Shown here: one piece after another, positions 1 through 34,337 of the stretch
How the letters are laid out: each line of letters begins with the position of its first letter
Position numbering within the stretch: the stretch's first letter is position 1
DNA from: an uncultured Pseudomonadota bacterium
Lineage (GTDB): Bacteria; Pseudomonadota; Alphaproteobacteria; RF32; CAG-239
Direction: 5' to 3'
Assembly (NCBI GenBank): GCA_949295025.1
Contig: CASFJK010000002.1
Span: 21,372-85,371 of the forward strand
Length of the DNA: 64,000 bases
Notes under the pieces: generated by a model
What the model was told of the DNA's origin: nothing
What the model saw: only the letters and a program-made list of their open reading frames with translations
The model's database searches: none
Program-made: the position numbers and the translations under genes

Positions 1-354
1 GGTAATATTGTTCCAATATTATCTAATATTCCTTCGGTTGTAGAAGTTGTTGATTCTCGCACTCGTGAATTAACTGAATATTTTGATATTCCTTCAGTTA
101 AAGCGTCCGATGATATATATGATATTGAAGAAATATACAATAATATAAGTTATAAAAATTTTAATGAAAGTTTTTCTAAAAAATTCGATAAGTTTAAGAA
201 GTTTATGAATGATTGTGGCTTACCTTGTTTACAAGATATTGAATATATAAATAAAGTGCTTCCGCCTATGTCTGATTTTACAATACCTGAAAGTGATTTT
301 AAAGAACTTTCAATATGGCATAAAATTTATAGGAGTATATTAAATATTTTATAA
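1..354 (+). CDS. 3' end of an unidentified ORF entering from the left edge (partial)
   Basis: Frame 1 is open from base 1 to TAA at 352-354 (...ELSIWHKIYRSILNIL*). No recognisable motif. AT-rich. Confidence 0.3.
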   Translation, partial: GNIVPILSNIPSVVEVVDSRTRELTEYFDIPSVKASDDIYDIEEIYNNISYKNFNESFSKKFDKFKKFMNDCGLPCLQDIEYINKVLPPMSDFTIPESDFKELSIWHKIYRSILNIL

Positions 355-477
355 GAAATGTTGCATATCAAATTAATAATTTATGGGCAGTTACTGAGAG
401 TAGAAGTTTGTTGCGAACTATCACGCTATAAATACTACTATTTATTTTAAATAACTTTTTATCAGATGAAAAAAGCA

Positions 478-513
478 TAAAAAAAATCCCTTCACAAGGA
501 AGGGATCTTTTTT
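478..513. terminator. Bidirectional rho-independent terminator
   Basis: Hairpin atcccttc-acaa-ggaagggat (486-506) is flanked by an A-run on the left and a T-run on the right. On the minus strand it follows the tRNA-Asn 3' end with 8 T. Confidence 0.6.
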
Positions 514-514
514 A

Positions 515-589
515 TGGCTCCGGCTGCCTGATTCGAACAGGCGACCGATCGGTTAACAGCCGATTGCTCTACCGCTGAGCTAAGCCGGA
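515..589 (-). tRNA. tRNA-Asn (anticodon GUU)
   Basis: Reverse complement reads TCCGGCTTAGCTCAGCGGTAGAGCAATCGGCTGTTAACCGATCGGTCGCCTGTTCGAATCAGGCAGCCGGAGCCA. Cloverleaf with anticodon loop CUGUUAA, G73 discriminator and encoded CCA. Confidence 0.8.
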
Positions 590-613
590 ATAATGCGGTA
601 TTGAATGAAATTT

Positions 614-688
614 TGGAGGCCGGTACCGGAATTGAACCGATGTACAAGGATTTGCAGTCCTCTGCATGAGCCACTCTGCCAACCGGCC
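614..688 (-). tRNA. tRNA-Cys (anticodon GCA)
   Basis: Reverse complement reads GGCCGGTTGGCAGAGTGG...GGACTGCAAATCC...GGTTCAATTCCGGTACCGGCCTCCA. Anticodon loop CUGCAAA, U73 discriminator and encoded CCA. Confidence 0.8.
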
Positions 689-907
689 AATTGATACCTC
701 AACTTTGAGTTCCTCATTCACTCAACGAGAATTATATATACAATCTTTTCACCGATAGTCAATAACTTTTTTAAATTTTTTTTGCTTTTTTTGTGATTAT
801 TTTTTTATTCCTTTAAAAATCAATCTCTTGGTTTTGCACACCACTTATATTTCTTGCATTTATATCCTCAACCTTTATGATTATTTCAGTTTTATAAGGA
901 GAATCAT

Positions 908-1336
908 ATGAAAATTGTTATCGCTTCTGATCATGGTGGTTTTGAACTTAAACAAAACCTCATAGATTATTATAAAAAACAAGGCATTAACCTTGAAGAC
1001 TTAGGCACTCATTCCAGCGAATCTTGCGATTATCCTGATATTGCAGATACTTTAACGGCTGAAATTTTGAGCAAACGCGCCGATTTGGGAATCCTTATTT
1101 GCGGAACAGGAATCGGAATCTCCATCGCAGCAAATCGCCATAAGGGAATCCGTGCCGCACTTCTTTATGATGATTTTACTGCCGAAATGGCTCACAAACA
1201 CAATAATGCAAATGTTCTTGTTTTTGGCGGTCGTACGATGAAAACTGAAGATGTTATCAGAAGAATCGATATTTTCTTAAATTCTGCATACGAGGGTGGT
1301 CGTCATCAGAATCGTCTTGATAAACTTGATGCATAG
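908..1336 (+). CDS. rpiB: Ribose-5-phosphate isomerase B
   Basis: 142 aa, RpiB/LacAB-family sequence (ASDHGG...ICGTGIGISIAANR). RBS aaggag lies 7 nt upstream. Confidence 0.9.
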   Translation: MKIVIASDHGGFELKQNLIDYYKKQGINLEDLGTHSSESCDYPDIADTLTAEILSKRADLGILICGTGIGISIAANRHKGIRAALLYDDFTAEMAHKHNNANVLVFGGRTMKTEDVIRRIDIFLNSAYEGGRHQNRLDKLDA

Positions 1337-1345
1337 GAGGCTTCT

Positions 1346-2608
1346 ATGGATTTTGAAAAAAAATTGTCTGCAGAAGATTCTGAAATTTTTGATGCCATTC
1401 AAAACGAACTCAAACGCCAACAAGAGCAAATTGAGCTGATTGCTTCTGAAAATATTGTTTCTAAAGCGGTTTTAGAGGCACAAGGTTCCATTCTTACCAA
1501 TAAATATGCTGAAGGTTATTCTGCTAAACGTTATTATGGTGGATGTGAATTTATTGATGTGGTAGAAAACTTGGCTATAGAACGCGCTAAAAAGCTTTTC
1601 AATGCCCAATTTGTCAATGTGCAACCTCACTCGGGTTCACAAGCCAATACAGCCGTCTATGTTGCTCTGCTTCAGCCGAACGATACCATTATGGGAATGT
1701 CTTTGGATGCTGGCGGACATTTGACGCACGGTGCAAAGGTTTCTTTCTCCGGAAAATGGCTCAATGCTGTAGCTTATGGCGTTACCAAAGATACTGGCTT
1801 GATTGACTATGACCAAGTGGAGCGTTTGGCAATTGAAAATAAACCCAAACTTATTATCGCCGGTGGTTCGGCTTATCCTCGTCAAGTTGATTTTGCTCGT
1901 TTTCGTGAAATTTGCAATCGGGTAGGGGCTTATTTAATGGTTGACATGGCACACTTTGCCGGCTTGGTTGCCGGTGGCGTGCATCCAAATCCGTTAGAAT
2001 ATGCCGATGTTGTTACGACCACCACGCACAAAACACTTCGCGGTCCCCGTGGCGGTATGATTTTAACCAATAATCCGGATATTGCTAAAAAAATTGATTC
2101 AGCTATTTTCCCCGGAACTCAAGGCGGACCTCTTATGCACGTGATTGCGGCTAAAGCAGTCTGCTTCAAAGAAGATTTGAGCGATGAATTCAAAGCCTAT
2201 GCAGCACAGGTGATTAAAAATGCTAAAGCACTTGGTAAACGCTTGCAAGAACGCGGTCTTGATTTGGTGTCGGGCGGAACAGATACACACCTGATTTTGG
2301 TTGATTTGCGTCCAAAAAAACTGACCGGAAAAGTTGTGGCTCTAGCTTTGGAAAGAGCGCATATGACTTGCAACAAGAATGCTATTCCTTTTGACCCTGA
2401 AAAACCGACAGTAACTTCTGGAATCCGTCTTGGTTCTCCGGCAGCAACAACCCGAGGTTTTAAAGAAAAAGAATTTATTCAAGTGGCAGATTGGATTGCC
2501 GATGTGATGGATTCTCTTGTTAACGGAACTTCAGAAATTGTTATTCCGCAAATACGAGAAAAAGTGATTGCACTTTGTAATCAATTCCCAATTTATAAAG
2601 ATTTGTAA
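1346..2608 (+). CDS. glyA: Serine hydroxymethyltransferase
   Basis: 420 aa with typical SHMT motifs ([24 protein letters not shown]). Confidence 0.95.
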
Positions 2609-2611
2609 AAG

Positions 2612-2652
2612 CAAAAAAAAGTCTGTAACTTTATTGGTTACAGACTTTTTTA
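2612..2652. terminator. Bidirectional rho-independent terminator (glyA / downstream lipoprotein gene)
   Basis: Hairpin gtctgtaac-tttattg-gttacagac is followed by TTTTTT and preceded by an A-run. Confidence 0.7.
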
Positions 2653-2664
2653 GATGAATTTAGT

Positions 2665-3333
2665 TTACTTTATCAGTTTTTTTACTTGCGCTAAGCTCGG
2701 TGCTTTAGCTTCCTTACCATCTTTGTCAAAAGAGGTGATTTTTACACGGCTCCAGTTGATAATTTTACCTTTATCGTTAAGCATAGGTAATTTTGCGTTT
2801 TTGCTGTTCAGAGCAATATAATTACCTTTGTCAATCAGCAATATTTCATTGCTAATTGGGATAAGTAATTTTCCTGTTTGTGTATAAACGCCGAACTTTC
2901 CGTTTTCTTTAACCAGAAGATTTTGGTTCTCATCAAGTCCGTAATTTTCAAAAATGCCGGATACTTTCCCATTTTCTTTAGCAAAGAAGAATGTAGATTT
3001 GTTGCCTTCTTTCGTTTCAAAACATTTCATGTTTTTGTTATACGAAATTGGGGTCGAACTTTGCAGAGAGACTTTGTTTTCCGGGGTTAGAAGCAAGCAT
3101 TTGTCATCTAACTGAGCGATAAACAATCCTTGTTCATAGTCTATCTTACTATAAACATTAGGGGTAACAGCAACTCCGTTAGCTTTTTTGATGCCGACTT
3201 TTCCTGGAACATCACTTTTGCTATACAGAACATATTCACCTGTTGCACCAAGAGGAGTTTGTGTTTCTTTCGGACCGCAACCAACCAAGCATAAAACTGT
3301 GGCAATTAAAGCCAAAAAACTAAAATTTTTCAT
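2665..3333 (-). CDS. Lipoprotein with WG-like repeats (hypothetical)
   Basis: Signal peptide plus lipobox (LVGC). Repeated G-K-x-G-(V/I)...hydrophobic modules resemble WG-containing repeats. Confidence 0.55.
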   Translation of the reverse strand: MKNFSFLALIATVLCLVGCGPKETQTPLGATGEYVLYSKSDVPGKVGIKKANGVAVTPNVYSKIDYEQGLFIAQLDDKCLLLTPENKVSLQSSTPISYNKNMKCFETKEGNKSTFFFAKENGKVSGIFENYGLDENQNLLVKENGKFGVYTQTGKLLIPISNEILLIDKGNYIALNSKNAKLPMLNDKGKIINWSRVKITSFDKDGKEAKAPSLAQVKKLIK

Positions 3334-3421
3334 AATAGTACAAATTTTAAAAATTAAACATAAAGTTACTTAAGACACTTAAGTAACTAGCATTTAAATT
3401 GAATTTAATCAAGATGATTTG

Positions 3422-4222
3422 CTATTTGCGTTTTTGCTCGTTGCTCAATTGAGATATCAAATTTTCTTTGAAATTGTTTGGTTTGCTACGGAAAAGTTGT
3501 AAAGTCTGGTTTATTTGCATATCAGTCATTTCAATATCATGTCTGATATCAGGTTTGTTCGCATCAAAAATATATTTAGGGTTGTTGACCAAGCAATATC
3601 TCTGATAAGGGCTTAGACTGATTTCTGTTTCTTTTACCTTTTTGTTTTGTAAATAAAAACTTTGACATGAAGCTTGAAAGTTTGAGCCTATTTTCTTGAA
3701 ATTCTTCAAAATTTTGGCTTTGATTTGTTTGAACTCGTCCATATCATAAATATAATAAAATTTATTTTTTTGTATGCTTTTAGCATTTCTAATGAGCTGA
3801 TATATTTCCGGAATGTTTTTAATCTGCTTTGGGTTAACAATGCAAAAAGATGTAATATCATCGGCATACAGAGCTAAAGCCGTCTTTTCAAAGTCAGCAT
3901 ATTTTAAATTGCAAAGTAACGGATTTATTTGCAATAAGGGAAACTTCCTATAGTTTTTTATTGGGGTGATGATGCCGATTTGATGTGGTCGGAACAAAAT
4001 TTCAGGTGTTTCATCTTTTGAAAAGAAAGGTGAAAGTTTGCTCCTTAAATCTTGATATTCTGCAACAAAATTAATTTTCTTGGTTTTAGGTGCCTGCTTT
4101 ATTTTGGCGATACGAGCTTTAAGGCTTTGCTTTTTATTAAGGTGCAGCTTTTCATTATCGTTAAGCATACTTAACGAAGCTTCAATCACACTTATTTCAA
4201 AGGCAACATTTTGTTCAGACAT
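3422..4222 (-). CDS. Hypothetical protein (AT-rich, lineage-specific)
   Basis: Long ORF. The likely start is MSEQNV... because RBS GAGGA lies 6 nt upstream; the ORF track extends it to 4261. No recognisable domain. Confidence 0.5.
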   Translation of the reverse strand: MSEQNVAFEISVIEASLSMLNDNEKLHLNKKQSLKARIAKIKQAPKTKKINFVAEYQDLRSKLSPFFSKDETPEILFRPHQIGIITPIKNYRKFPLLQINPLLCNLKYADFEKTALALYADDITSFCIVNPKQIKNIPEIYQLIRNAKSIQKNKFYYIYDMDEFKQIKAKILKNFKKIGSNFQASCQSFYLQNKKVKETEISLSPYQRYCLVNNPKYIFDANKPDIRHDIEMTDMQINQTLQLFRSKPNNFKENLISQLSNEQKRK

Positions 4223-5671: not shown

Positions 5672-6160
5672 ATGAAATGTCCGTTTTGCGGTTGTGATGA
5701 TACGCAGGTTAAAGATTCTCGTAATGCCGATGATAATACCGCCATTCGCCGTCGTCGTGAATGTCCGGAATGCGGCTCAAGGTTTACAACCTTTGAACGT
5801 ATTCAGCTTAGAGAATTGACCGTTGTCAAAAAAAATGGTGAAAAAACACCCTTTGACAGAGACAAGCTTGCTCGCTCCATTCAGATTGCGGTTAGAAAAC
5901 GTCCGGTTACACCCGAACGTGTGGAAAAAATTGTGAACTCTATTCAACGTCGTTTGGAAACGACAGGAGAAGCAGAGATTCCGTCTACTACAATCGGACA
6001 ATATGTGATGGATGCGCTTTCTAATCTTGACCATATTGCTTATATCCGCTTTGCTTCGGTGTATAAAGATTTTCGTGAAGTGAAAGATTTTGAAGATTTT
6101 GTTGAAACTATTGATCAGTTTGCCAAGCCCAAACATCAAAATGAAGGAGATGATGAATAA
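5672..6160 (+). CDS. nrdR: Transcriptional repressor NrdR
   Basis: MKCPFCG...[13 protein letters not shown] zinc ribbon followed by an ATP-cone. 162 aa. Confidence 0.9.
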
Positions 6161-6642
6161 TGGCTAAATTTATTTCTGAAAAAATTAAAATGAAATCCGG
6201 TGCTCGTTTGGCCGCCGTGCAAGCTACTTATATGATTGAATATGGTCAACTGCCCGTAGATGAAGTGATTAAAGACTTTGTTAACGGCGAAGTCGGTCGC
6301 TATGTGATTGAAGATGAGGGCAACGATCGTGAAGAATTGGTTGAAGTCGGCGCTATGGATACGGCTTATTTTACCGAGTTGACCAAAGGTGTGCATACAC
6401 ACAAAGAAGAAATTGAAAAATCTTTGGCTCATTATCTCAAAGAAGGTTGGTCTTTTGAGCGTTTTGACGGCACATTGCGTGCTTTGCTCCTTTGTGCTAC
6501 CTATGAACTTGCTCACACGCAAGATGTTGATGCCAATGTGCTGATTAAAGAATATGTTGATTTGGCTTATGCATTCTTCACTAAAAATGAACCCAAAATG
6601 GTGAATGCTTTGTTGGATCATATAGCAAAAGAAATACGCTAA
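6160..6642 (+). CDS. nusB: Transcription antitermination factor NusB
   Basis: 160 aa, NusB-like (ARLAAVQATY...). Start overlaps the nrdR stop (TAATG). Confidence 0.85.
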   Translation: MAKFISEKIKMKSGARLAAVQATYMIEYGQLPVDEVIKDFVNGEVGRYVIEDEGNDREELVEVGAMDTAYFTELTKGVHTHKEEIEKSLAHYLKEGWSFERFDGTLRALLLCATYELAHTQDVDANVLIKEYVDLAYAFFTKNEPKMVNALLDHIAKEIR

Positions 6643-6738
6643 AAATGCTAAAAATGCAGTAAACGGGAAGCTAGAGCAATTTGGCAGAGAGAAAATGAAA
6701 ATTGTTTGGGCTACCGTTAACTCAATAAAAGGAAAAAA

Positions 6739-7257
6739 ATGTCTGTTTTGAAATTATATGAATATCCGCATCCGATTTTGAAGAAAAAAGCGCAGAAGGT
6801 CGAAAAAGTTGATGATGATATGCGCAAGTTTTTGGATGATATGTTAGAAACCATGTATGCCGATGCCGGTGTGGGTTTGGCTGCGCCGCAAGTTGGTGTG
6901 TCTAAACGTGTGGTTGTGATTGATATTGCCCATGATGATGAAGAACCCAATCCATATTACATGGTTAATCCCGAAATTATTTGGAAATCGGAAGAAAAAG
7001 TTTGCGGAGAAGAGGGATGCTTATCTGTCCCCGACCAACGTGCGGAAGTAGAGCGCTTTGCTGCCGTTAAAGTGAAATATCTAGACTATAACGGCAAAGA
7101 GCAAGAACTCTTGGCGGAAGGCTTTTTAGCCATTGCTGTTCAGCATGAGTTGGACCATTTAGATGGGATTCTTTATATTGACCGAATCAGTCGATTGAAG
7201 CGGCAAATGCTTCTTAAAAAGCTTGAAAAAATGCGTAAAGAAAAAGCTCATCAATAA
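6739..7257 (+). CDS. def: Peptide deformylase
   Basis: Motifs GVGLAAPQVG, EGCLSVP and HELDHLDG. 172 aa. Confidence 0.9.
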   Translation: MSVLKLYEYPHPILKKKAQKVEKVDDDMRKFLDDMLETMYADAGVGLAAPQVGVSKRVVVIDIAHDDEEPNPYYMVNPEIIWKSEEKVCGEEGCLSVPDQRAEVERFAAVKVKYLDYNGKEQELLAEGFLAIAVQHELDHLDGILYIDRISRLKRQMLLKKLEKMRKEKAHQ

Positions 7258-7602
7258 GATGGGTTTTTTTATATATAAAAAAACCCAAAATGGACAAAAA
7301 GATTCTTCTTGCGTGAGGGGCTGATTTGTGGTATTCTAAATTTTGCTAAAATAAATTCTGTTAATTATTATCTTCTGCATTGTATGTAAGAAAATGATTC
7401 GTATTGAAAAGATGATTTGAAAAAATTTGAGAGTTGCAAAGCTAGCAACCTCCCAACGAGCGAAGTATAGTACCTCAGGGACCAAAAAACAAATTTGTCA
7501 AACATTTTGAGTAGAACGAAAGCCATTTTCCCAGGGATGATGCAGGTTTTTAACATAAACTCCGACTGAGATTCGAAAGAAGGTAACGTTAGGAGTTACA
7601 CT

Positions 7603-8568
7603 ATGGCTAATATTACCATAGCTTTTTCTAAGGATATTGAAACAGTTAAGTCTTTGGTGGCTCAGGGATACTGCCCCGTTGAATGCTCCTTCGGGGGTGT
7701 TTCAGTGGTTGATTCTCTTGAGTTGGATCACCACGGGTCAAAGTCTCATTTAGAGTCCGTAGCGATACGGGCTTATAGAGATTTCTTCGGCGTTAGAGCC
7801 GAGGATCCAAGGTTTGTTATAAACCACGTGGATGCGGACAGCATTTTCGCTGTTGCAGCGTTGGCTGGTTTGTTGCCTCATCCAGAGGCTGCCAAAAATA
7901 TGCCGGTCTTCTTGCAAAAGACATGGGGGCAAGATCTTATGCCTTTGGCAGAGACTATTGCAATTATGGACACCGACCCGATTGGTCGTGACATCATTGC
8001 AATGCCAAGGGGATCAATCCTCGCGGCATGGAATTCGCTTTTCGGTGCTAATGCCAACGACGAGCTTGCTGCGTACTGTGCTGTCGAAGGCTTCCGTCGT
8101 CTTTTGACACAGCCGTCCGCTCAGGTATTCGTTGCCGCCGCTGAAAATGCAGAGAACCAACGTCGCGAAGCCGCACTTGCAGATTTGCGCGAACGCGGCG
8201 AAAAGGTAGGCAACGTGATGACCATTCTTGGCAGCCGCGTGTTCGGATTTGCTGAATGGTATGGTCGCAACGTTGAGGCAGGTGCTCCGACAGAGGCAGC
8301 TGGTTGGGATAACCCAATCGTTGTTAGCCTCGTTGAGGCAACAAATGCCTTGACTTTCGGTGCACCGAACAAGGCGGTTGCTGAAGAGCTGCTGGGAGTC
8401 GGTGGCTTCATGAACGTCTTTAAGGCGCTCAACGAAGCCTATGGCTTGGCAGACGGTGCAGGTTTCGGTGGTCGTGAGACTATCGGTGGATCGCCTCGCG
8501 GTCAAAAAATGACCGAAGCTGACCTTGCCAAAGCGGTTTCTGTAATCAACCAACTGATGAAGAAATAA
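7603..8568 (+). CDS. Hypothetical protein encoded by a GC-rich (foreign-looking) ORF
   Basis: 321-aa ORF with a strong RBS (aggag, 7 nt upstream). Its GC content is visibly well above the flanks, which creates several overlapping antisense ORFs. No confidently recognisable domain. The His/Asp motifs LDHHGS and HVDADS could hint at a metal-dependent hydrolase. Confidence 0.6.
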   Translation: MANITIAFSKDIETVKSLVAQGYCPVECSFGGVSVVDSLELDHHGSKSHLESVAIRAYRDFFGVRAEDPRFVINHVDADSIFAVAALAGLLPHPEAAKNMPVFLQKTWGQDLMPLAETIAIMDTDPIGRDIIAMPRGSILAAWNSLFGANANDELAAYCAVEGFRRLLTQPSAQVFVAAAENAENQRREAALADLRERGEKVGNVMTILGSRVFGFAEWYGRNVEAGAPTEAAGWDNPIVVSLVEATNALTFGAPNKAVAEELLGVGGFMNVFKALNEAYGLADGAGFGGRETIGGSPRGQKMTEADLAKAVSVINQLMKK

Positions 8569-8587
8569 TCTTCTTTCATCAGTTGGA

Positions 8588-8620
8588 AAGAGAGGTGTTT
8601 TTGCACCTCTCTTTTTTTAT
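8588..8620 (+). terminator. Rho-independent terminator after the GC-rich ORF
   Basis: Hairpin agagaggtg-ttttt-gcacctctct followed by TTTTTTT. Confidence 0.75.
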
Positions 8621-8622
8621 GT

Positions 8623-9561
8623 TTATTTTTCGTACTTGCCTTTTTGCAATTTGGCAAAATATAATGGTGATAGTTGGAACGGTTCTTTGTAGCTTCCGTC
8701 TTTTAGGCTTGTAATCAGTTCTTTTGTGATGCCTTCTTTTTGCAACTCCCTTTGTCTTTCTCTGATGATATTTTCTGCTTCAGTTATGGTACTTTCAACT
8801 GCTTTAGGCAACTGTGTCGAATTTTTTATCAGAGGCAAAACATTAGTGGTTTCATAAACTTTTCTATCCGGATTATAAATTGTAAAAGTAAACATGTCTT
8901 TCATATATTTCAGATAAGTTTTATCACTTGCATCAATGTTTAAAACTGGTTTTAAGTAGGCATCAGCTAAAGTGATGGTTTCTAATTTGCTTTTGCCGTT
9001 AATTTTTTTCATATAACTCGGAGATGCTTTTTCATTCCATGCATTGATAGATTCATTGGCAATAGAACCAACATCGGTCAAAACCACTCTTCGTTGTTTG
9101 GGTGATAAGTTTTTTATTTTGTTTTTGAGCCAATAATAACGATCAGTAAATACGCTTAAATCTTCTTCTTTTAAAAAATAGTTGGCGCAAAGCGTGAAAA
9201 TTTCTTGTATATAGGCAGCTTTTTCATTGTTTTCATTGTAACAATAGCTTTGTTTGGGAGTGAGTTCTTTATAGTCTTTTTCTTCAGCTAATTTACACTT
9301 ATACAAATAGCATTGTGCATGCTTCATTTCATGGCTGGTAATATAGAGCTTATCATTTTTGTTTAAGTAGTCAGAAATTAGACTACTTAAAAAGAAAATT
9401 ATCTTTCTGTCTTTAGGGGTATATTTTGTTTTACTGAGGGTATCTTTAAATTCTTGCGGAAGCATAAAAACTTTATCAATTATGTGAACAACGTTTAAGT
9501 TGTGATGTCCGACCTCATTGGCAATATTAATTTTATCGTGATTTTGATTGTAACAGACCAC
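8623..9561 (-). CDS. Hypothetical protein containing an HExxH motif
   Basis: 312 aa, AT-rich and N/K-rich. Contains SHEMKHAQ (HExxH) with downstream Glu residues. No other recognisable domain. Confidence 0.45.
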   Translation of the reverse strand: MVCYNQNHDKINIANEVGHHNLNVVHIIDKVFMLPQEFKDTLSKTKYTPKDRKIIFFLSSLISDYLNKNDKLYITSHEMKHAQCYLYKCKLAEEKDYKELTPKQSYCYNENNEKAAYIQEIFTLCANYFLKEEDLSVFTDRYYWLKNKIKNLSPKQRRVVLTDVGSIANESINAWNEKASPSYMKKINGKSKLETITLADAYLKPVLNIDASDKTYLKYMKDMFTFTIYNPDRKVYETTNVLPLIKNSTQLPKAVESTITEAENIIRERQRELQKEGITKELITSLKDGSYKEPFQLSPLYFAKLQKGKYEK

Positions 9562-9659
9562 TTCTTGTGTTTGTTCATCAAATTCGGGATAATAAAAACT
9601 AACAATTCGTTTAATAGGGGTGTTTTGTTTGTTAAACGGTGGGGGTAAATCTTTTTGTT

Positions 9660-9977
9660 CTAATTTATATTTGCAAAACCAAGCATAATGGTTAGTTTTT
9701 TTTCCAGTTCGGACATATCTTCTTTAAGGTTTTGCATATCGGAAATTTGGTTGAAATATTTTTGCTGAATGCGACCGTGTGGAAGTTCATTTTGCAACAT
9801 ATCCGTTAATCTGAAATCGGCTTTGGGAAATTGTTTTGAAAATTCTTCATAGTCATAATCATTGTAGCTTTTGTTGAACTTGTTTTGCTTATATTTTATC
9901 AACTCATCATCACTCAAAGTTACATCATCTTTGAATGCCAGAAAAAAGCCTGCGTTTGTTTTTAATACTTTGACCAT
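9660..9977 (-). CDS. Hypothetical small protein
   Basis: Likely start is MVKVLKTN..., which has an RBS-like aaggga upstream. The ORF track extends it to 10010. Confidence 0.4.
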   Translation of the reverse strand: MVKVLKTNAGFFLAFKDDVTLSDDELIKYKQNKFNKSYNDYDYEEFSKQFPKADFRLTDMLQNELPHGRIQQKYFNQISDMQNLKEDMSELEKKLTIMLGFANIN

Positions 9978-10099
9978 CTTTATGTCCCTTTTATAGACAC
10001 ATGATAGCAAATTTTTGTGTTAAATTAAAGTTTAATTTTGCTTGCTTATTTATATAAATTTTTTACAATAAAGCAAATTTATGAAGGAGATTGAAGATT

Positions 10100-11017
10100 A
10101 TGAAAGTTGTTTTTATGGGAACACCAGATTTTTCCGTTCCTGTTTTGGAGAAATTGGTTAAAGAACACGAAGTTATTTGTGTCTATACACGTGCGCCTAA
10201 AGAAGCCGGTCGCGGACAAAAAGAAACCAAAACTCCGGTTCATCTCAAAGCGGAAGAGCTCGGAATTGAAGTTCGTACGCCAAAAACTTTGCGCAATGCA
10301 GAAGAACAACAAAAATTTAAAAATCTTCAAGCGGATATTGCAGTTGTTGTCGCTTATGGTTTGATTTTGCCTAAAGAAATTTTGAATGCTTGTCCTAATG
10401 GATGCTTGAATATTCATGCTTCTTTGTTACCGCGTTGGCGCGGCGCAGCTCCGATTCAACGCGCAATTGAAATGGGCGATGAAAAGTCCGGTGTGACTAT
10501 TATGCAGATGGACGAGGGACTTGACACCGGTGACATGTTGCTCAAAAAAGAAGTGGAAATTACCGATACTACCACAGGCGGTGAGCTTCATGATGCGCTT
10601 TCTCAAATGGGGGCAGACTTGATTATGGAAGCTTTGAAAAACTATTCTTCTCTCAAGCACGAAAAGCAAGATGAAACCCTTACTTGCTATGCTTCTAAAT
10701 TGGAAAAAGAAGAAACTCATTTAGACTTTTCTCAATCAGCGGAAGTCTTGGAACGCAAAATCAGAGCTTTTAATCCATTTCCGTCAACCTATTTTGAATA
10801 TAAAGGAGAACGTTTCAAAGTTCATGAAGCTGAAGCTCTTATGGCAGATTCCGGCTATGCTGCAGGAACAATTATCCCAAATGACAGCGGCTTGTTGATT
10901 GCTTGCGGAGAGGGAATGCTCTTTATTACCAAAATTCAACGTCAGGGCAAAAAATCCATGCCGATTGAAGAGCTATTACGCGGTTTTCAATTCACCCCAG
11001 ATGAAATGGTTGCCTGA
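10100..11017 (+). CDS. fmt: Methionyl-tRNA formyltransferase
   Basis: MKVVFMGTPDFSVPVL... with the formyltransferase N-domain and HASLLPRWRGAAPI. ATG at 10100 has RBS aaggag 10 nt upstream; the track begins at the TTG at 10091. Confidence 0.9.
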   Translation: MKVVFMGTPDFSVPVLEKLVKEHEVICVYTRAPKEAGRGQKETKTPVHLKAEELGIEVRTPKTLRNAEEQQKFKNLQADIAVVVAYGLILPKEILNACPNGCLNIHASLLPRWRGAAPIQRAIEMGDEKSGVTIMQMDEGLDTGDMLLKKEVEITDTTTGGELHDALSQMGADLIMEALKNYSSLKHEKQDETLTCYASKLEKEETHLDFSQSAEVLERKIRAFNPFPSTYFEYKGERFKVHEAEALMADSGYAAGTIIPNDSGLLIACGEGMLFITKIQRQGKKSMPIEELLRGFQFTPDEMVA

Positions 11018-22436: not shown

Positions 22437-22762
22437 TTGTTATAGAAAAGGGCCGTTCTGTTGCTGGGTGGCCCATACCCCACTTTCAACTATCCAGAGT
22501 TAAAAGAATTTGAATTTGTTGCGACTACAAATTAAGCAGCCATTGCAACAGGAGCTACGTTATTATCGTTAGCATTCATTTAGTTTGAACCGATAACGGT
22601 GGTATCTCACCGGGTACGACATACATATCTTTACTGTTCCCAATCAAGCCTGTTTCACCCCCAAAGTTTGTAAGCTTAATTTGGTGGAGGTGCCGGGTAC
22701 CGCCCCCGGGTCTTGAAAACCTATTTCATACAGCCTCTAGTACCATAGCTGAAAAACTCAGC
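22437..22762 (-). ncRNA. ssrA: tmRNA (ssrA), permuted two-piece type
   Basis: The minus strand encodes the tag reading frame GCT AAC GAT AAT AAC GTA GCT CCT GTT GCA ATG GCT GCT TAA, giving ANDNNVAPVAMAA*. The upstream acceptor piece ends ...CACCUCC-ACCA at 22682. After a short loop, the coding piece begins GGGGGUG at 22662, giving an acceptor stem with a G3:U70 pair (Ala identity). A sigma70-like promoter TTGCAA-17-TATATT lies at 22770-22798 on the minus strand. Confidence 0.65.
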
Positions 22763-22769
22763 AAGTCAT

Positions 22770-22798
22770 AATATAGGTGATATTTGGCTACTTTGCAA
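22770..22798 (-). promoter_or_regulatory. Putative sigma70 promoter of ssrA
   Basis: The minus strand reads TTGCAA, then a 17-nt spacer, then TATATT, about 7 nt before the predicted acceptor-piece 5' end. Confidence 0.4.
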
Positions 22799-23752
22799 GC
22801 CTTATCTTTCTTGACAAAACAATATTTAATGATATATTTTTTAACAATTAATTTATTATTCATTTTAAATATTATAATTATGGAAAGAGAAAAAATGATT
22901 GACAGTCTTGGCAACCAAGAACAGGTTCTTTTTTGGTTTGCCAGTAAGTATGATATCAAGCATGTTTCCAAATTGCTGGCTGACGGTTATACTTTGACAA
23001 TAGATGTGCTGGAAGTGCTGTATTTTCTGGGTTATTCTTCTGAACAGATTCTGGATTGTATTAAATCTTGCAAATATTATATTGATGCTAAACTTTTGTT
23101 TGATTGGTTATGCGGCTTTATTGGGCAAGAAAAAACAGAGGCATTTATTATCGCAGAATTTGAATATGATCCTGATTTGTTTCAATATTTTTCATTAGAA
23201 AGTTTGGAAAAGCATAAATGTTGGGATGAATTGGCTTGTCGTAAAGCTGATGACATTTTGTTTAAGCACGGGGTTTATGATAAAATGACGCCGGAAGGTT
23301 TGTATAAACACCAATTGTTTGATGAATATTTTAAGAAGTATGGACATATTAATCCTGAGGATAATGCTGCACTTGATTATTTGGCAGAAAAAGGCTTGTG
23401 GAATATTGTTCAAGCAAACTACAATATACTTAGAAATACGACCAATCAAAAGCTGCTTGATTTTTTGGTGAAGCATAAAAAGTTTGAAATGATTGCCACA
23501 CAAAATGTGATGTATTTGACCAAATTTCCTGAAGGAATTGAGTATTTACAGAAAAATAAACGCTATTATGTTCTGGCGGAAGCCAAACTTTGGGATAAAA
23601 TCGATTGGGACGAGTATTTGCAATCGGGAACAATCAAACCGATGAGAGATGCAGAAACCGCTCAGCAATGGGATGCATTGATGCGTGGTCACCGACATCT
23701 GGTGCTTTTAAAGCATTTCAAGCTTTGGCGTTTTGTTAAATCTTTTTTCTAA
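22784..23752 (+). CDS. Hypothetical protein (AT-rich, lineage-specific)
   Basis: 322-aa ORF. An alternative start MEREKMIDS lies at 22880. No recognised domain. Confidence 0.45.
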   Translation: MATLQALSFLTKQYLMIYFLTINLLFILNIIIMEREKMIDSLGNQEQVLFWFASKYDIKHVSKLLADGYTLTIDVLEVLYFLGYSSEQILDCIKSCKYYIDAKLLFDWLCGFIGQEKTEAFIIAEFEYDPDLFQYFSLESLEKHKCWDELACRKADDILFKHGVYDKMTPEGLYKHQLFDEYFKKYGHINPEDNAALDYLAEKGLWNIVQANYNILRNTTNQKLLDFLVKHKKFEMIATQNVMYLTKFPEGIEYLQKNKRYYVLAEAKLWDKIDWDEYLQSGTIKPMRDAETAQQWDALMRGHRHLVLLKHFKLWRFVKSFF

Positions 23753-34145: not shown

Positions 34146-34222
34146 CGGGGCATAGCTCAGCCTGGTAGAGCGCTTGCTTTGGGAGCAAGATGTCGTAGGT
34201 TCGAATCCTGCTGCCCCGACCA
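34146..34222 (+). tRNA. tRNA-Pro (anticodon UGG)
   Basis: CGGGGCATAGCTCAGCCTGGTAGAGCGCTTGCTTTGGGAGCAAG...GGTTCGAATCCTGCTGCCCCGACCA with a C1:G72 pair and A73. Confidence 0.85.
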
Positions 34223-34260: not shown

Positions 34261-34337
34261 GGTCTCGTAGCTCAGCTGGATAGAGCAACAGCCTTCTAAG
34301 CTGTGGGTCAGAGGTTCGAATCCTCTCGAGATCGCCA
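34261..34337 (+). tRNA. tRNA-Arg (anticodon UCU)
   Basis: GGTCTCGTAGCTCAGCTGGATAGAGCAACAGCCTTCTAAGCTGT...GGTTCGAATCCTCTCGAGATCGCCA. Confidence 0.85.

Follow-up and report, generated by a model that had tools for sequence, protein, structure and literature searches.

Peptide deformylase and methionyl-tRNA formyltransferase are encoded by def and fmt, which form a canonical adjacent operon in most bacteria. A second system of relevance here centers on SAM-AMP, a conjugate of S-adenosylmethionine (SAM) and AMP that was described in 2023 as a CRISPR second messenger and whose only role known to us is in antiphage defense. A CorA-associated phosphodiesterase of the DHH family from a type III-B CRISPR system of Bacteroides fragilis, NrN (PDB 9lq9-9lqc), cleaves this molecule specifically to SAM and AMP. 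Two enzymes are known to degrade this messenger of type III CRISPR systems, NrN and SAM-AMP lyase, and they are interchangeable (PMC10600005; PMC12255297). Here, we describe the interval between def and fmt in a 64,000-nucleotide stretch of contig CASFJK010000002.1 (the window, below) from an uncultured gut alphaproteobacterium. Both genes are retained in the canonical order and orientation, in a block of rpiB, glyA, two minus-strand open reading frames (ORFs), murF, nrdR, nusB, and def, followed beyond the gap by fmt and glmM. Unlike in the canonical operon, however, 0.9 to 3.2 kb of accessory DNA lies between the two genes in every member of the lineage examined. The 2.8-kb separation reported in the initial annotation of the window was confirmed, Pfam identifying both genes, which are 2,842 nt apart. 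The interval encodes a DHH-type protein, ORF1, preceded by a long conserved leader, and a second gene, ORF-Y, on the opposite strand.

The explanation that best joins our observations, and that we hold with a little better than even confidence, is an old variable def-fmt spacer occupied by an autonomous, leader-gated DHH phosphoesterase unit and by an unrelated, decaying ORF-Y unit. According to this model, unit 1 (7271-8618) would be a self-contained transcription unit made of a TG-extended promoter, a leader of ~260 nt, ORF1, and a double-hairpin terminator. The leader would keep translation of ORF1 off by sequestering the Shine-Dalgarno (SD) sequence until a signal (a ligand, a protein, or an alternative pairing) opens the hairpin, and ORF1, once translated, would hydrolyze a small phosphodiester-linked nucleotide. 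Unit 2 (8623-10035) would consist of a single fast-evolving, lineage-restricted gene of the HExxH (zincin-like) type, inactivated in this strain through the loss of one A from an A9 tract.

We compared the synteny of the locus in eleven related assemblies of the same lineage of gut Alphaproteobacteria, the def genes of the window clade being 92 to 98% identical to that of the window. ORF1 alone separates def from fmt in L001, L010, and L013 (def identity of 92 to 97%) and in the more distant L003 (80%). Both ORF1 and Y are present in the window, L009, L011, and L012 (94 to 98%), ORF1 is accompanied by a remnant of Y in L014 (97%), and Y is found without ORF1 in L093 and L094 (97%) and in L077 to L079 (80%). 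Adjacent def and fmt genes with an empty gap were not seen among the relatives recovered, while every other combination of ORF1 and Y was. In the alleles lacking Y, window positions 8560 to 8622 are fused directly to positions 10036 to 10090. In the ORF1-less alleles of L093 and L094, the def hairpin and a single run of seven T residues (T7) are retained and are followed immediately by the 3' end of ORF-Y, while the ORF1-bearing alleles have T7 at both ends of a 1,348-bp unit (left copy at 7264-7270, right copy at 8612-8618). The gap holds two independent presence/absence indel units, each gained or lost separately. Since the arrangement recurs in at least eight independent assemblies, an assembly artifact was rejected as its source. 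The synteny check proposed in the initial annotation thus cut both ways: close relatives do differ in gap content, but the arrangement is complete in L009, where every part has an orthologue (90% identity for ORF1, and 61 and 57% for the parts corresponding to the two minus-strand ORFs first listed, ORF2 and ORF3). Downstream of fmt, where the window clade has glmM, the ORF1-less L077 (positions 1-3895) carries very large genes for secreted proteins, a Peptidase_S8 protein of 1,007 amino acids (aa) and a HemolysinCabind protein of the RTX type (1,004 aa).

The interval had initially been read as one or more insertions into a conserved operon. This was correct insofar as the accessory DNA forms two indel units that are polymorphic among close relatives, but the insertions do not seem to be recent and the genes are not three. 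Both events appear to be old, since ORF1 (in L003) and Y (in L077) already occupy the gap in lineages whose def is only 80% identical and since the neutral composition is normal. A recent horizontal insertion of foreign GC-rich DNA into the def-fmt operon, with the AT-rich ORFs as a second import, would be in line with the lack of ORF1 in the gaps of the close relatives L093 and L094 and with the patchy distribution of the ORF1 family across phyla. We nevertheless regard it as very improbable, as ORF1 is found in L003 together with the same leader, at a distance where four-fold degenerate sites differ by 66 to 68% and are essentially saturated, and as ORF-Y is likewise ancestral to the gap. 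Searches of phage and plasmid collections with ORF1 by tblastn gave no match, and no transposase or integrase ORF was found. The direct repeats that the initial annotation had suggested looking for amounted to the T7 run at each end of the cassette, the search having otherwise returned short chance repeats but no inverted repeats or real target duplication. The cassette was not classed as a mobile element, the T7 homopolymer, its sole flanking repeat, being part of two terminators. For our own reading of the cassette as an indel unit, it is a drawback that such a low-complexity repeat is weak evidence for any insertion mechanism.

Base composition was the original reason to suspect an import, the 966-bp ORF1 having been described as GC-richer than everything else in the window. 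Among 64 non-overlapping window ORFs of at least 100 aa (mean GC content of 0.370, standard deviation of 0.040), ORF1 did show the highest GC content (0.512; z = +3.5), which speaks for a recent insertion; a 300-nt profile peaked at 0.54 to 0.56 within it, and all three codon positions were raised (z of 2.3, 2.0, and 2.9 for GC1, GC2, and GC3, respectively). At four-fold degenerate sites, however, the description failed, their GC content being 0.379 (z = +0.5), and in none of the nine clade members did the four-fold GC content of ORF1 (0.34 to 0.56) exceed that of the flanking genes; it equaled that of def or was lower, and it was close to the value for fmt. The excess is found instead in two-fold third positions (0.39 to 0.61 versus 0.25 to 0.46), and Ala, Gly, Pro, and Arg make up 33% of the protein versus 21 to 24% in its neighbors. 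The high GC content of ORF1 is that of a conserved protein rich in these four residues combined with a preference for G/C-ending two-fold codons, and it is therefore no sign of recent foreign origin. Four-fold sites differ by 13 to 57% between clade members, so neutral sites have turned over and ORF1 retains no donor-like signature. The compositional check was negative also for tetranucleotides (|z| < 2 over 6 to 11 kb), and the minus-strand ORFs, previously called AT-rich, turned out to be ordinary (GC content of 0.318 for ORF-Y; z = -1.3). Taken together, these data largely refute the recent part of the insertion reading.

The GC-rich look recurs in the ORF1 homologues of most low-GC hosts. 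On contigs of Patescibacteria and unclassified metagenome-assembled genomes (MAGs), four homologues (L030:2650-3555, L031:5989-6900, L063:46-522, and L066:4195-5097) have a GC3 of 0.89 to 0.97 versus a contig GC content of 0.43 to 0.54. This sign of foreign DNA is far stronger than that in the window and points to a recent transfer out of high-GC organisms, for example Myxococcota. This resemblance to recent transfer, seen there in some Patescibacteria, is a further argument that a proponent of recent insertion could raise. A 161-aa ORF antisense to nusB (6136-6621, minus strand) would also deceive a purely compositional scan: its GC3 is 0.53 (z = +3.6), and it is a shadow of the nusB frame, not a gene.

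The ORF1 protein had no match in Pfam (E ≤ 0.1), NCBIfam, PHROGs, or PADLOC, and a profile search of PDB sequences gave nothing real. Its family comprises at least 287 proteins at 90% clustering (E ≤ 0.001), a count in which scoring was confined to the 8,000 candidates with the most shared words, or 280 clusters at 50% among 1.84 billion, from gut Alphaproteobacteria, many Myxococcota, Bradymonadia, Bdellovibrionota, some Patescibacteria, and one Nanoarchaeia MAG. Across 61 family members (41 to 93% identity), E27, D42-H43-H44, R56, D77xD79, and D123 are invariant, and the C-terminal motifs GGRE (289-292) and GGSPRG (295-300) stand in place of the GGGH of DHHA1, with G289, G290, G296, S297, P298, and R299 invariant and the other positions nearly so. 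The AF2 model (pLDDT of 96) shows an N-terminal alpha/beta domain and a DHHA1-like C-terminal domain, as in DHH-type folds, and the top Foldseek matches all belonged to the DHH superfamily, PAP phosphatase 8a8k, RecJ, and PggH coming first. Pfam DHH gave matches in 11 of the 61 members, the best at an E value of 0.0027, all below the gathering threshold. On the basis of the fold, the invariant motifs, and these sub-threshold matches, we assigned ORF1 to a new, unannotated subfamily of the DHH/DHHA1 superfamily; judging from the modeled fold and the invariant acidic and histidine motifs, it would be a metal-dependent phosphoesterase.

A few family members, all rare, carry the ORF1 domain in a larger protein: it is fused to a RecD/Pif1-like superfamily 1 (SF1) helicase in P0330 and to a GGACT (gamma-glutamyl cyclotransferase-like) domain in P0371, is followed in P0262 by a tail with a histidine-phosphatase-like RHAE...H motif, as judged by eye, and has extensions of ~300 to 420 aa lacking assigned identity in P0261 and P0270. 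Two contigs of 133 and 143 kb classed as viral in IMG/VR encode homologues of 41 to 45% identity (L095:5001-5876 and L096:5001-5945), but their viral nature is doubtful: among the neighbors, nine ORFs had no PHROG match, one matched UDP-glucose dehydrogenase, and no phage hallmark was seen. A conserved neighborhood in Myxococcota was considered and rejected: the genes found there, plsY, nadC, and those for a redoxin, a methyltransferase, and a Ser/Thr kinase fused to FGE-sulfatase, have only unrelated housekeeping roles.

Our best hint at function is the company that ORF1 homologues keep. In eight loci of gut Alphaproteobacteria (L006, L016, L017, L019, L020, L087, L088, and L089), they adjoin a gene for a protein of ~200 aa without Pfam domain, called P here, which lies immediately upstream in six loci and convergently downstream in L016 and L019. 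The profile of P matched the solved SAM-AMP lyase 9gad/9gab through residues 54 to 104 (E = 5.5e-8) and the solved SAM lyase 9lqd through residues 124 to 199 (E = 4.1e-8), so that P, matching through two different halves, appears to be made of two lyase-like halves in tandem. In L090 to L092, L098, and L099, P is followed by a protein of 231 to 258 aa called at the same position, and the 258-aa copy of L090, the only one tested, matched NrN 9lq9 (E = 1e-28) and the PADLOC model DHH_CorA (E = 2e-48). This P-NrN operon (L090:5001-6419), which is hisS-linked, has a predicted 5' untranslated region (UTR) of ~290 nt upstream, and neither a CRISPR nor a CorA gene was found within ~5 kb. It lies on scaffold_18 of sample ERZ16268208, a genome of the window clade (def identity of 97%) whose gap lacks ORF1, and the same locus type recurs in L098 and L099. 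ORF1-type and NrN-type DHH proteins thus fill the same slot beside P. The spacing of the catalytic motifs is also near-identical by eye (E27 to D42HH, 15, and on to D77, 35, in ORF1; E71 to D86HH, 15, and on to D120, 34, in NrN, numbered as in the PDB alignment), a suggestive likeness that is not statistical.

Because ORF1 homologues adjoin P in eight loci and because P has a true NrN as its partner in a window-clade genome, the substrate of ORF1 may tentatively be placed among SAM-nucleotide conjugates of the SAM-AMP type or the products of their lyase. Generic turnover of nanoRNA, pAp, or dinucleotides is about equally likely, if anything a shade ahead, though it too falls short of an even chance. 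Several results weigh against the SAM-AMP link. None of the 61 family members matched DHH_CorA even at an E value of ≤10, a model that the 258-aa L090 protein, used as a positive control, does match; the sole local hhalign alignment between ORF1 and NrN spans the E27...DHH stretch with a probability below 5%; and NrN ranks only 16th to 22nd among the DHH structures found by Foldseek. P is absent from the 64-kb window and occurs in L097 without a neighboring DHH gene, no cas10, corA, or other defense gene was seen within about 5 kb on either side of the homologues, locus by locus, and the neighbors in Myxococcota are unrelated housekeeping genes. With no match to DHH_CorA in the family and hhalign probabilities of 2 to 4% against NrN and the L090 homologue, the identification of ORF1 as NrN by sequence profile was rejected. 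PADLOC assigned ORF1 to no defense system, and tblastn of P against the phage collection gave no match.

ORF1 might also be a generic phosphoesterase of RNA turnover or sulfur metabolism without any link to SAM (a nanoRNase, a pApA/pGpG phosphodiesterase, or a pAp phosphatase, analogous to NrnA, PggH, or CysQ), with an ordinary autoregulatory or growth-rate-responsive 5' UTR as its leader. The best Foldseek matches, the helicase and histidine-phosphatase-like fusions (P0330 and P0262), which suggest work on nucleic acids or nucleotides, and the housekeeping neighbors in Myxococcota all agree with such a role, and the surplus of G/C-ending two-fold codons could reflect high expression. We consider it unlikely as a complete account, though a serious one: ORF1 is dispensable at this locus in close relatives, a family of 280 clusters is oddly tiny for a core function, the adjacency to P recurs and P is paired with a true NrN as well, and one fusion is to a GGACT cyclotransferase, not to a nuclease. 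At the other extreme, the ORF1 cassette could encode a leader-RNA-controlled, CRISPR-independent phosphodiesterase for SAM-AMP or a related conjugate of SAM or methylthioadenosine (MTA) with a nucleotide, ORF1 and NrN being interchangeable partners of P in gut Alphaproteobacteria and the leader possibly a new riboswitch class for such a molecule. This specific combination is improbable, but if it were true, SAM-nucleotide conjugates would be made, sensed, or countered outside CorA-type III CRISPR systems, and the predatory (Myxococcota, Bradymonadia, and Bdellovibrionota) and episymbiotic (Patescibacteria and Nanoarchaeia) hosts would hint at the neutralization of another cell's immune signal.

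Upstream of P-ORF1 operons, noncoding regions of 650 to 800 nt contain a block of ~200 nt that is 73 to 79% conserved and encloses a conserved box, TTTGTCTAGAC (L017:4000, L020:4737, L022:5802, L088:3792, and L089:3719), with the palindrome GTCTAGAC; the box may be an operator. In L089, the genes adjoining this region are NAD-salvage genes and a gene for an NrtR-type regulator. In L088, a weak second paralogue of the C-terminal half of P (7875-8294; 24 to 28% identity) lies ~2 kb downstream of the P-ORF1 operon, within a 269-aa ORF without Pfam domain.

The long leader noted initially between def and ORF1 is real, occupying positions 7258 to 7602. This 345-nt spacer is 89 to 91% identical across the clade, against a divergence of 13 to 57% at the four-fold sites of def, ORF1, and fmt, and is still 78% identical to that of L003; such conservation indicates that it is under strong purifying selection. 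The leader accompanies ORF1 to a different genomic context in L016 and L019 (nhmmer E = 1e-20; 146 to 151 bits with the covariance model). Both hexamers and the spacing of the predicted promoter are kept in 11 of 11 aligned relatives, L003, L016, and L019 included, so a 5' UTR of ~260 nt is predicted, with transcription inferred to start near position 7344. At the 3' end of the leader, an anti-SD sequence would pair with the SD sequence of ORF1 in a hairpin with a folding energy of -9.6 to -13.2 kcal/mol in three lineages. The two RNAalifold helices of this module (helices 6 and 7) are 98.9 to 100% paired, and one compensatory pair is seen in each (UA to CG in L016 and L019, and UA to CG in L003, L016, and L019). 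No match to Rfam (release 15; 4,227 families) was found in the spacer at an E value of ≤1 (scan of 6500 to 10500), nor at ≤0.1 in the leaders of L003 and L019 or in the upstream regions of L017, L020, L088, and L089. We propose the spacer as a candidate new cis-regulatory RNA gating translation.

This proposal is weakened by several observations. The promoter and the transcription start of ORF1 are predictions only, and a consensus promoter scan omitted the conserved site, listing a weaker one at 7343 to 7371. The leader shows four compensatory pairs in all, two of them in upstream helices, in 11 sequences that represent three divergence levels only; the minimum free energy of the whole leader is ordinary compared with shuffled sequences (z = +0.2); and the covariance model, R1, recovered only its five founding sequence types from 35 sources, with no more distant copies. 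The spacer could instead be a DNA-level control region with repressor operators, or a separate small RNA or small protein. All 345 nt are conserved, the promoter region included, a 10-bp sequence in the spacer, ACAAATTTGT, is a perfect palindrome and has a related repeat, AAATTTG, and the upstream regions of P-ORF1 operons bear a different palindromic box (TTTGTCTAGAC); these points, together with the unexceptional folding energy, would suit DNA-level control. We find this alternative rather unlikely, in that the ACAAATTTGT palindrome is lost in L016 and L019 although the leader is kept, and the compensatory changes in the 3' module preserve the pairing of the SD sequence. A small protein was rejected because no reading frame is conserved across relatives, indels shifting the sole long antisense ORF in L012 and L003. 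Three other leads were followed to no effect. A pattern scan of JGI metagenomes (GAAGTATAGTA N40-70 CCCAGGGATG) gave seven matches, none with a leader hidden Markov model match or with ORF1, and these were attributed to chance. The leader is not a decayed remnant of P, tblastn finding no similarity. A motif common to the window leader and to P-operon leaders was rejected, local alignments with L090, L089, L088, L087, and L006 not being significant against shuffles; the alignment of the upstream regions of L019 and L089 alone stood out (z = 4.1), a weak lead.

The two lineage-specific minus-strand ORFs of the initial annotation exist as listed (8623-9561 and 9660-9977, the latter extendable to 10010) but are frame fragments of one gene, ORF-Y, split at a run of eight A residues (A8). 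Relatives encode a single colinear minus-strand protein in the same place (446 aa in L009 and 573 aa in L011 and L012), which begins with MVKVLKTN, as does ORF3 in the window, and runs on into ORF2. In a tblastn comparison, the L009 protein matched the window in frame +3 and then in frame +2, the switch falling at A8. Insertion of one A at this site yields an uninterrupted ORF of 451 aa, while deletion of one A leads to an immediate stop. As A8 is present also in L076, which was assembled independently from the same strain and is 99.76% identical over 5 kb, the frameshift is real in the strain and not a one-off error.

ORF-Y has 17 homologues in 5.8 billion proteins, all from one bacterial lineage and without Pfam domain, and only 33 to 61% of its residues are identical between genomes whose def is 94 to 98% identical. 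The HExxH motif (H216-E217-x-x-H220 in the restored window numbering) is invariant in alignments of 4 and of 16 homologues, and an acidic cluster ~30 residues downstream is invariant or conserved. PADLOC gave no match for ORF-Y. The gene is decaying or possibly phase variable, with A8 as the off state and A9 as the on state of a contingency gene. For such a switch, one may cite the position of the break exactly within a homopolymer whose extension by one A restores the full ORF, the very fast evolution of the gene (61% or 33 to 37% identity), and its variable presence among strains, which is typical of contingency loci. However, both available assemblies of the strain carry A8, with no polymorphism of tract length between them, and the intact relatives have no long A tract at the homologous position but A runs at other offsets. 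Furthermore, L014 retains a remnant of ~290 nt, three relatives have lost ORF-Y, and no signal peptide or surface-protein domain was found in the protein. Phase variation thus appears improbable, and we favor simple decay of ORF-Y in this strain.

The features of the interval are listed in Table 1. The strong terminator noted initially downstream of ORF1 was confirmed as two tandem hairpins (-37.9 kcal/mol; z = -8.8 versus shuffles) followed by T7; it is kept in all relatives and sits just past the 3' end of the convergent ORF-Y. In a further departure from the canonical operon, def ends in a terminator-like hairpin, and a promoter-like site of its own precedes fmt. The latter site is conserved beside fmt regardless of the presence of ORF1 or Y; fmt therefore appears to have a promoter of its own, and def and fmt are probably not cotranscribed in this lineage. 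Directly 3' of the def stop codon, a perfect 28-nt palindrome, TGGGTTTTTTTATATATAAAAAAACCCA (7260-7287), overlaps the T7 run of the def terminator, on the left border of the ORF1 cassette, and is kept in ORF1-bearing relatives.

Table 1. Predicted and annotated features between def and fmt (window positions)
Feature	Position	Strand	Description
def (peptide deformylase)	6739..7257	+	Pfam PF01327 Pep_deformylase, E 5e-59; left anchor of gap
Terminator-like hairpin of def	7247..7270	+	Stem CTCATC (7247-7252)/GATGGG (7258-7263) around stop codon, then T7 (7264-7270); read from sequence
ORF1 cassette, indel unit of 1,348 bp	7271..8618	.	Promoter, leader, ORF1, and terminator, ending in second T7 (8612-8618); junctions from window/L011 versus L093/L094
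Predicted sigma-70-type promoter of ORF1	7309..7337	+	-35 TTGCGT (7309-7314), 17-nt spacer, TG-extended -10 TATTCT (7332-7337)
Conserved 5' leader of ORF1	7344..7602	+	Core 7380-7602; candidate cis-regulatory structured RNA
Predicted SD-sequestering hairpin	7559..7596	+	Anti-SD ACUCC (7559-7563) pairs with SD AGGAG (7591-7595); encloses UUC-GAAA-GAA tetraloop hairpin (7572-7581)
ORF1, 321 aa	7603..8568	+	Divergent DHH/DHHA1-fold phosphoesterase (assigned from model), unannotated family
Stop-codon-spanning hairpin and intrinsic terminator	8550..8618	+	Hairpin 8550-8586; stem 8587-8611, then T7 (8612-8618)
ORF-Y indel unit, ~1.41 kb	8623..10035	.	Absent from L001, L010, L013, and L003; remnant in L014
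ORF-Y	8623..9977	-	Lineage-restricted HExxH gene; N-terminal fragment from ATG 9977 to stop 9660; C-terminal fragment, homology from ~9699 to stop 8623
A8 homopolymer, frame-loss site	9696..9703	-	A9 would restore 451-aa ORF
Promoter-like site of fmt	10042..10069	+	TTGCTT, 16 nt, TACAAT; predicted; kept in every allele
fmt (methionyl-tRNA formyltransferase)	10100..11017	+	Pfam PF00551 and PF02911 (Formyl_trans_N/C); right anchor of gap

Elsewhere in the window, an alphaproteobacterial two-piece (permuted) tmRNA gene was recognized on the minus strand (22446-22802; Rfam RF01849, 207 bits). Two tRNA genes on the plus strand (34146-34219 and 34261-34334), 42 nt apart and with identical Rfam scores of 68.9 bits, probably represent a tandem duplicate.

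As genome architecture, the locus is of modest interest, with a long-established variable spacer, not a fresh insertion, interrupting a conserved gene block. What is new, and put forward as hypotheses, is an unannotated DHH subfamily tied by its neighborhood to SAM-AMP-degrading enzymes outside CRISPR, and a strongly constrained leader RNA upstream of it. No model in Pfam, NCBIfam, PHROG, or PADLOC covers the ORF1 family, which is small and strongly conserved; its fold can now be assigned with confidence, and a hypothesis on its substrate can be offered. Only two types of enzyme are known to destroy SAM-AMP, and the neighborhood of the family links it to both; the pairing of both on CRISPR-free chromosomes would widen the range of places where such chemistry is expected. 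The leader changes three to six times more slowly than most neighboring synonymous sites, and its SD-sequestering hairpin offers an experimental handle. The locus also holds a caution for annotation from sequence alone, as the composition of the encoded protein may account for a GC-rich gene in an AT-rich genome, and apparent orphan ORFs, two in this case, can belong to a single frameshifted gene.

Compared with described systems, ORF-Y resembles HExxH zincin-like enzymes (Wss1/SprT, M30/M32/M4 peptidases, and the HExxH oxygenase domain of ChlB) in its invariant HExxH and acidic cluster, and its best structural matches, though weak, are HExxH proteins. It differs from them by a novel N-terminal beta-rich domain and by its confinement to 17 proteins of one lineage. 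The ORF1 leader differs from translational SD-sequestering riboswitches (SAM-II, SAM-V, SAM/SAH, and preQ1) in lacking an Rfam match, in lying upstream of one gene family so far, and in an aptamer-like part too uniform for a statistical covariation test. Like them, it is long and highly conserved, has a 3' hairpin pairing anti-SD with SD through compensatory changes, and moves with its gene between loci.

ORF1 shares with DHH/DHHA1 phosphoesterases (NrnA/Pde2, GdpP, PggH, TM1595, RecJ, and archaeal PAP phosphatase; PF01368/PF02272) the two-domain fold, the invariant DHH, and the acidic metal-ligand motifs, and all its significant structural matches fall in this superfamily, although it stays below Pfam thresholds, the canonical GGGH is replaced, and TM-scores are only 0.3 to 0.4. 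P, for its part, differs from SAM-AMP lyase and phage SAM lyase (PII-like trimers; 9gad and 9lqd) in its length of ~200 aa with apparently two lyase-like halves, versus 125 to 131 aa for the solved enzymes, and in being chromosomal with no CRISPR nearby and not encoded in the window. It resembles both in its profile matches (E of ~5e-8) and, like the CRISPR-linked SAM-AMP lyase, adjoins a DHH phosphodiesterase. Finally, ORF1 is ~60 to 75 aa longer than NrN, has a distinct C-terminal GGRE...GGSPRG motif, and lacks both the profile match and, within 5 kb on either side, the CorA/Cas10/CRISPR context, NrN not being its top Foldseek match. It has in common with NrN a compact DHH domain with the same order and, by eye, near-identical spacing of motifs, and its homologues occupy the same position next to P as true NrN does in related genomes.

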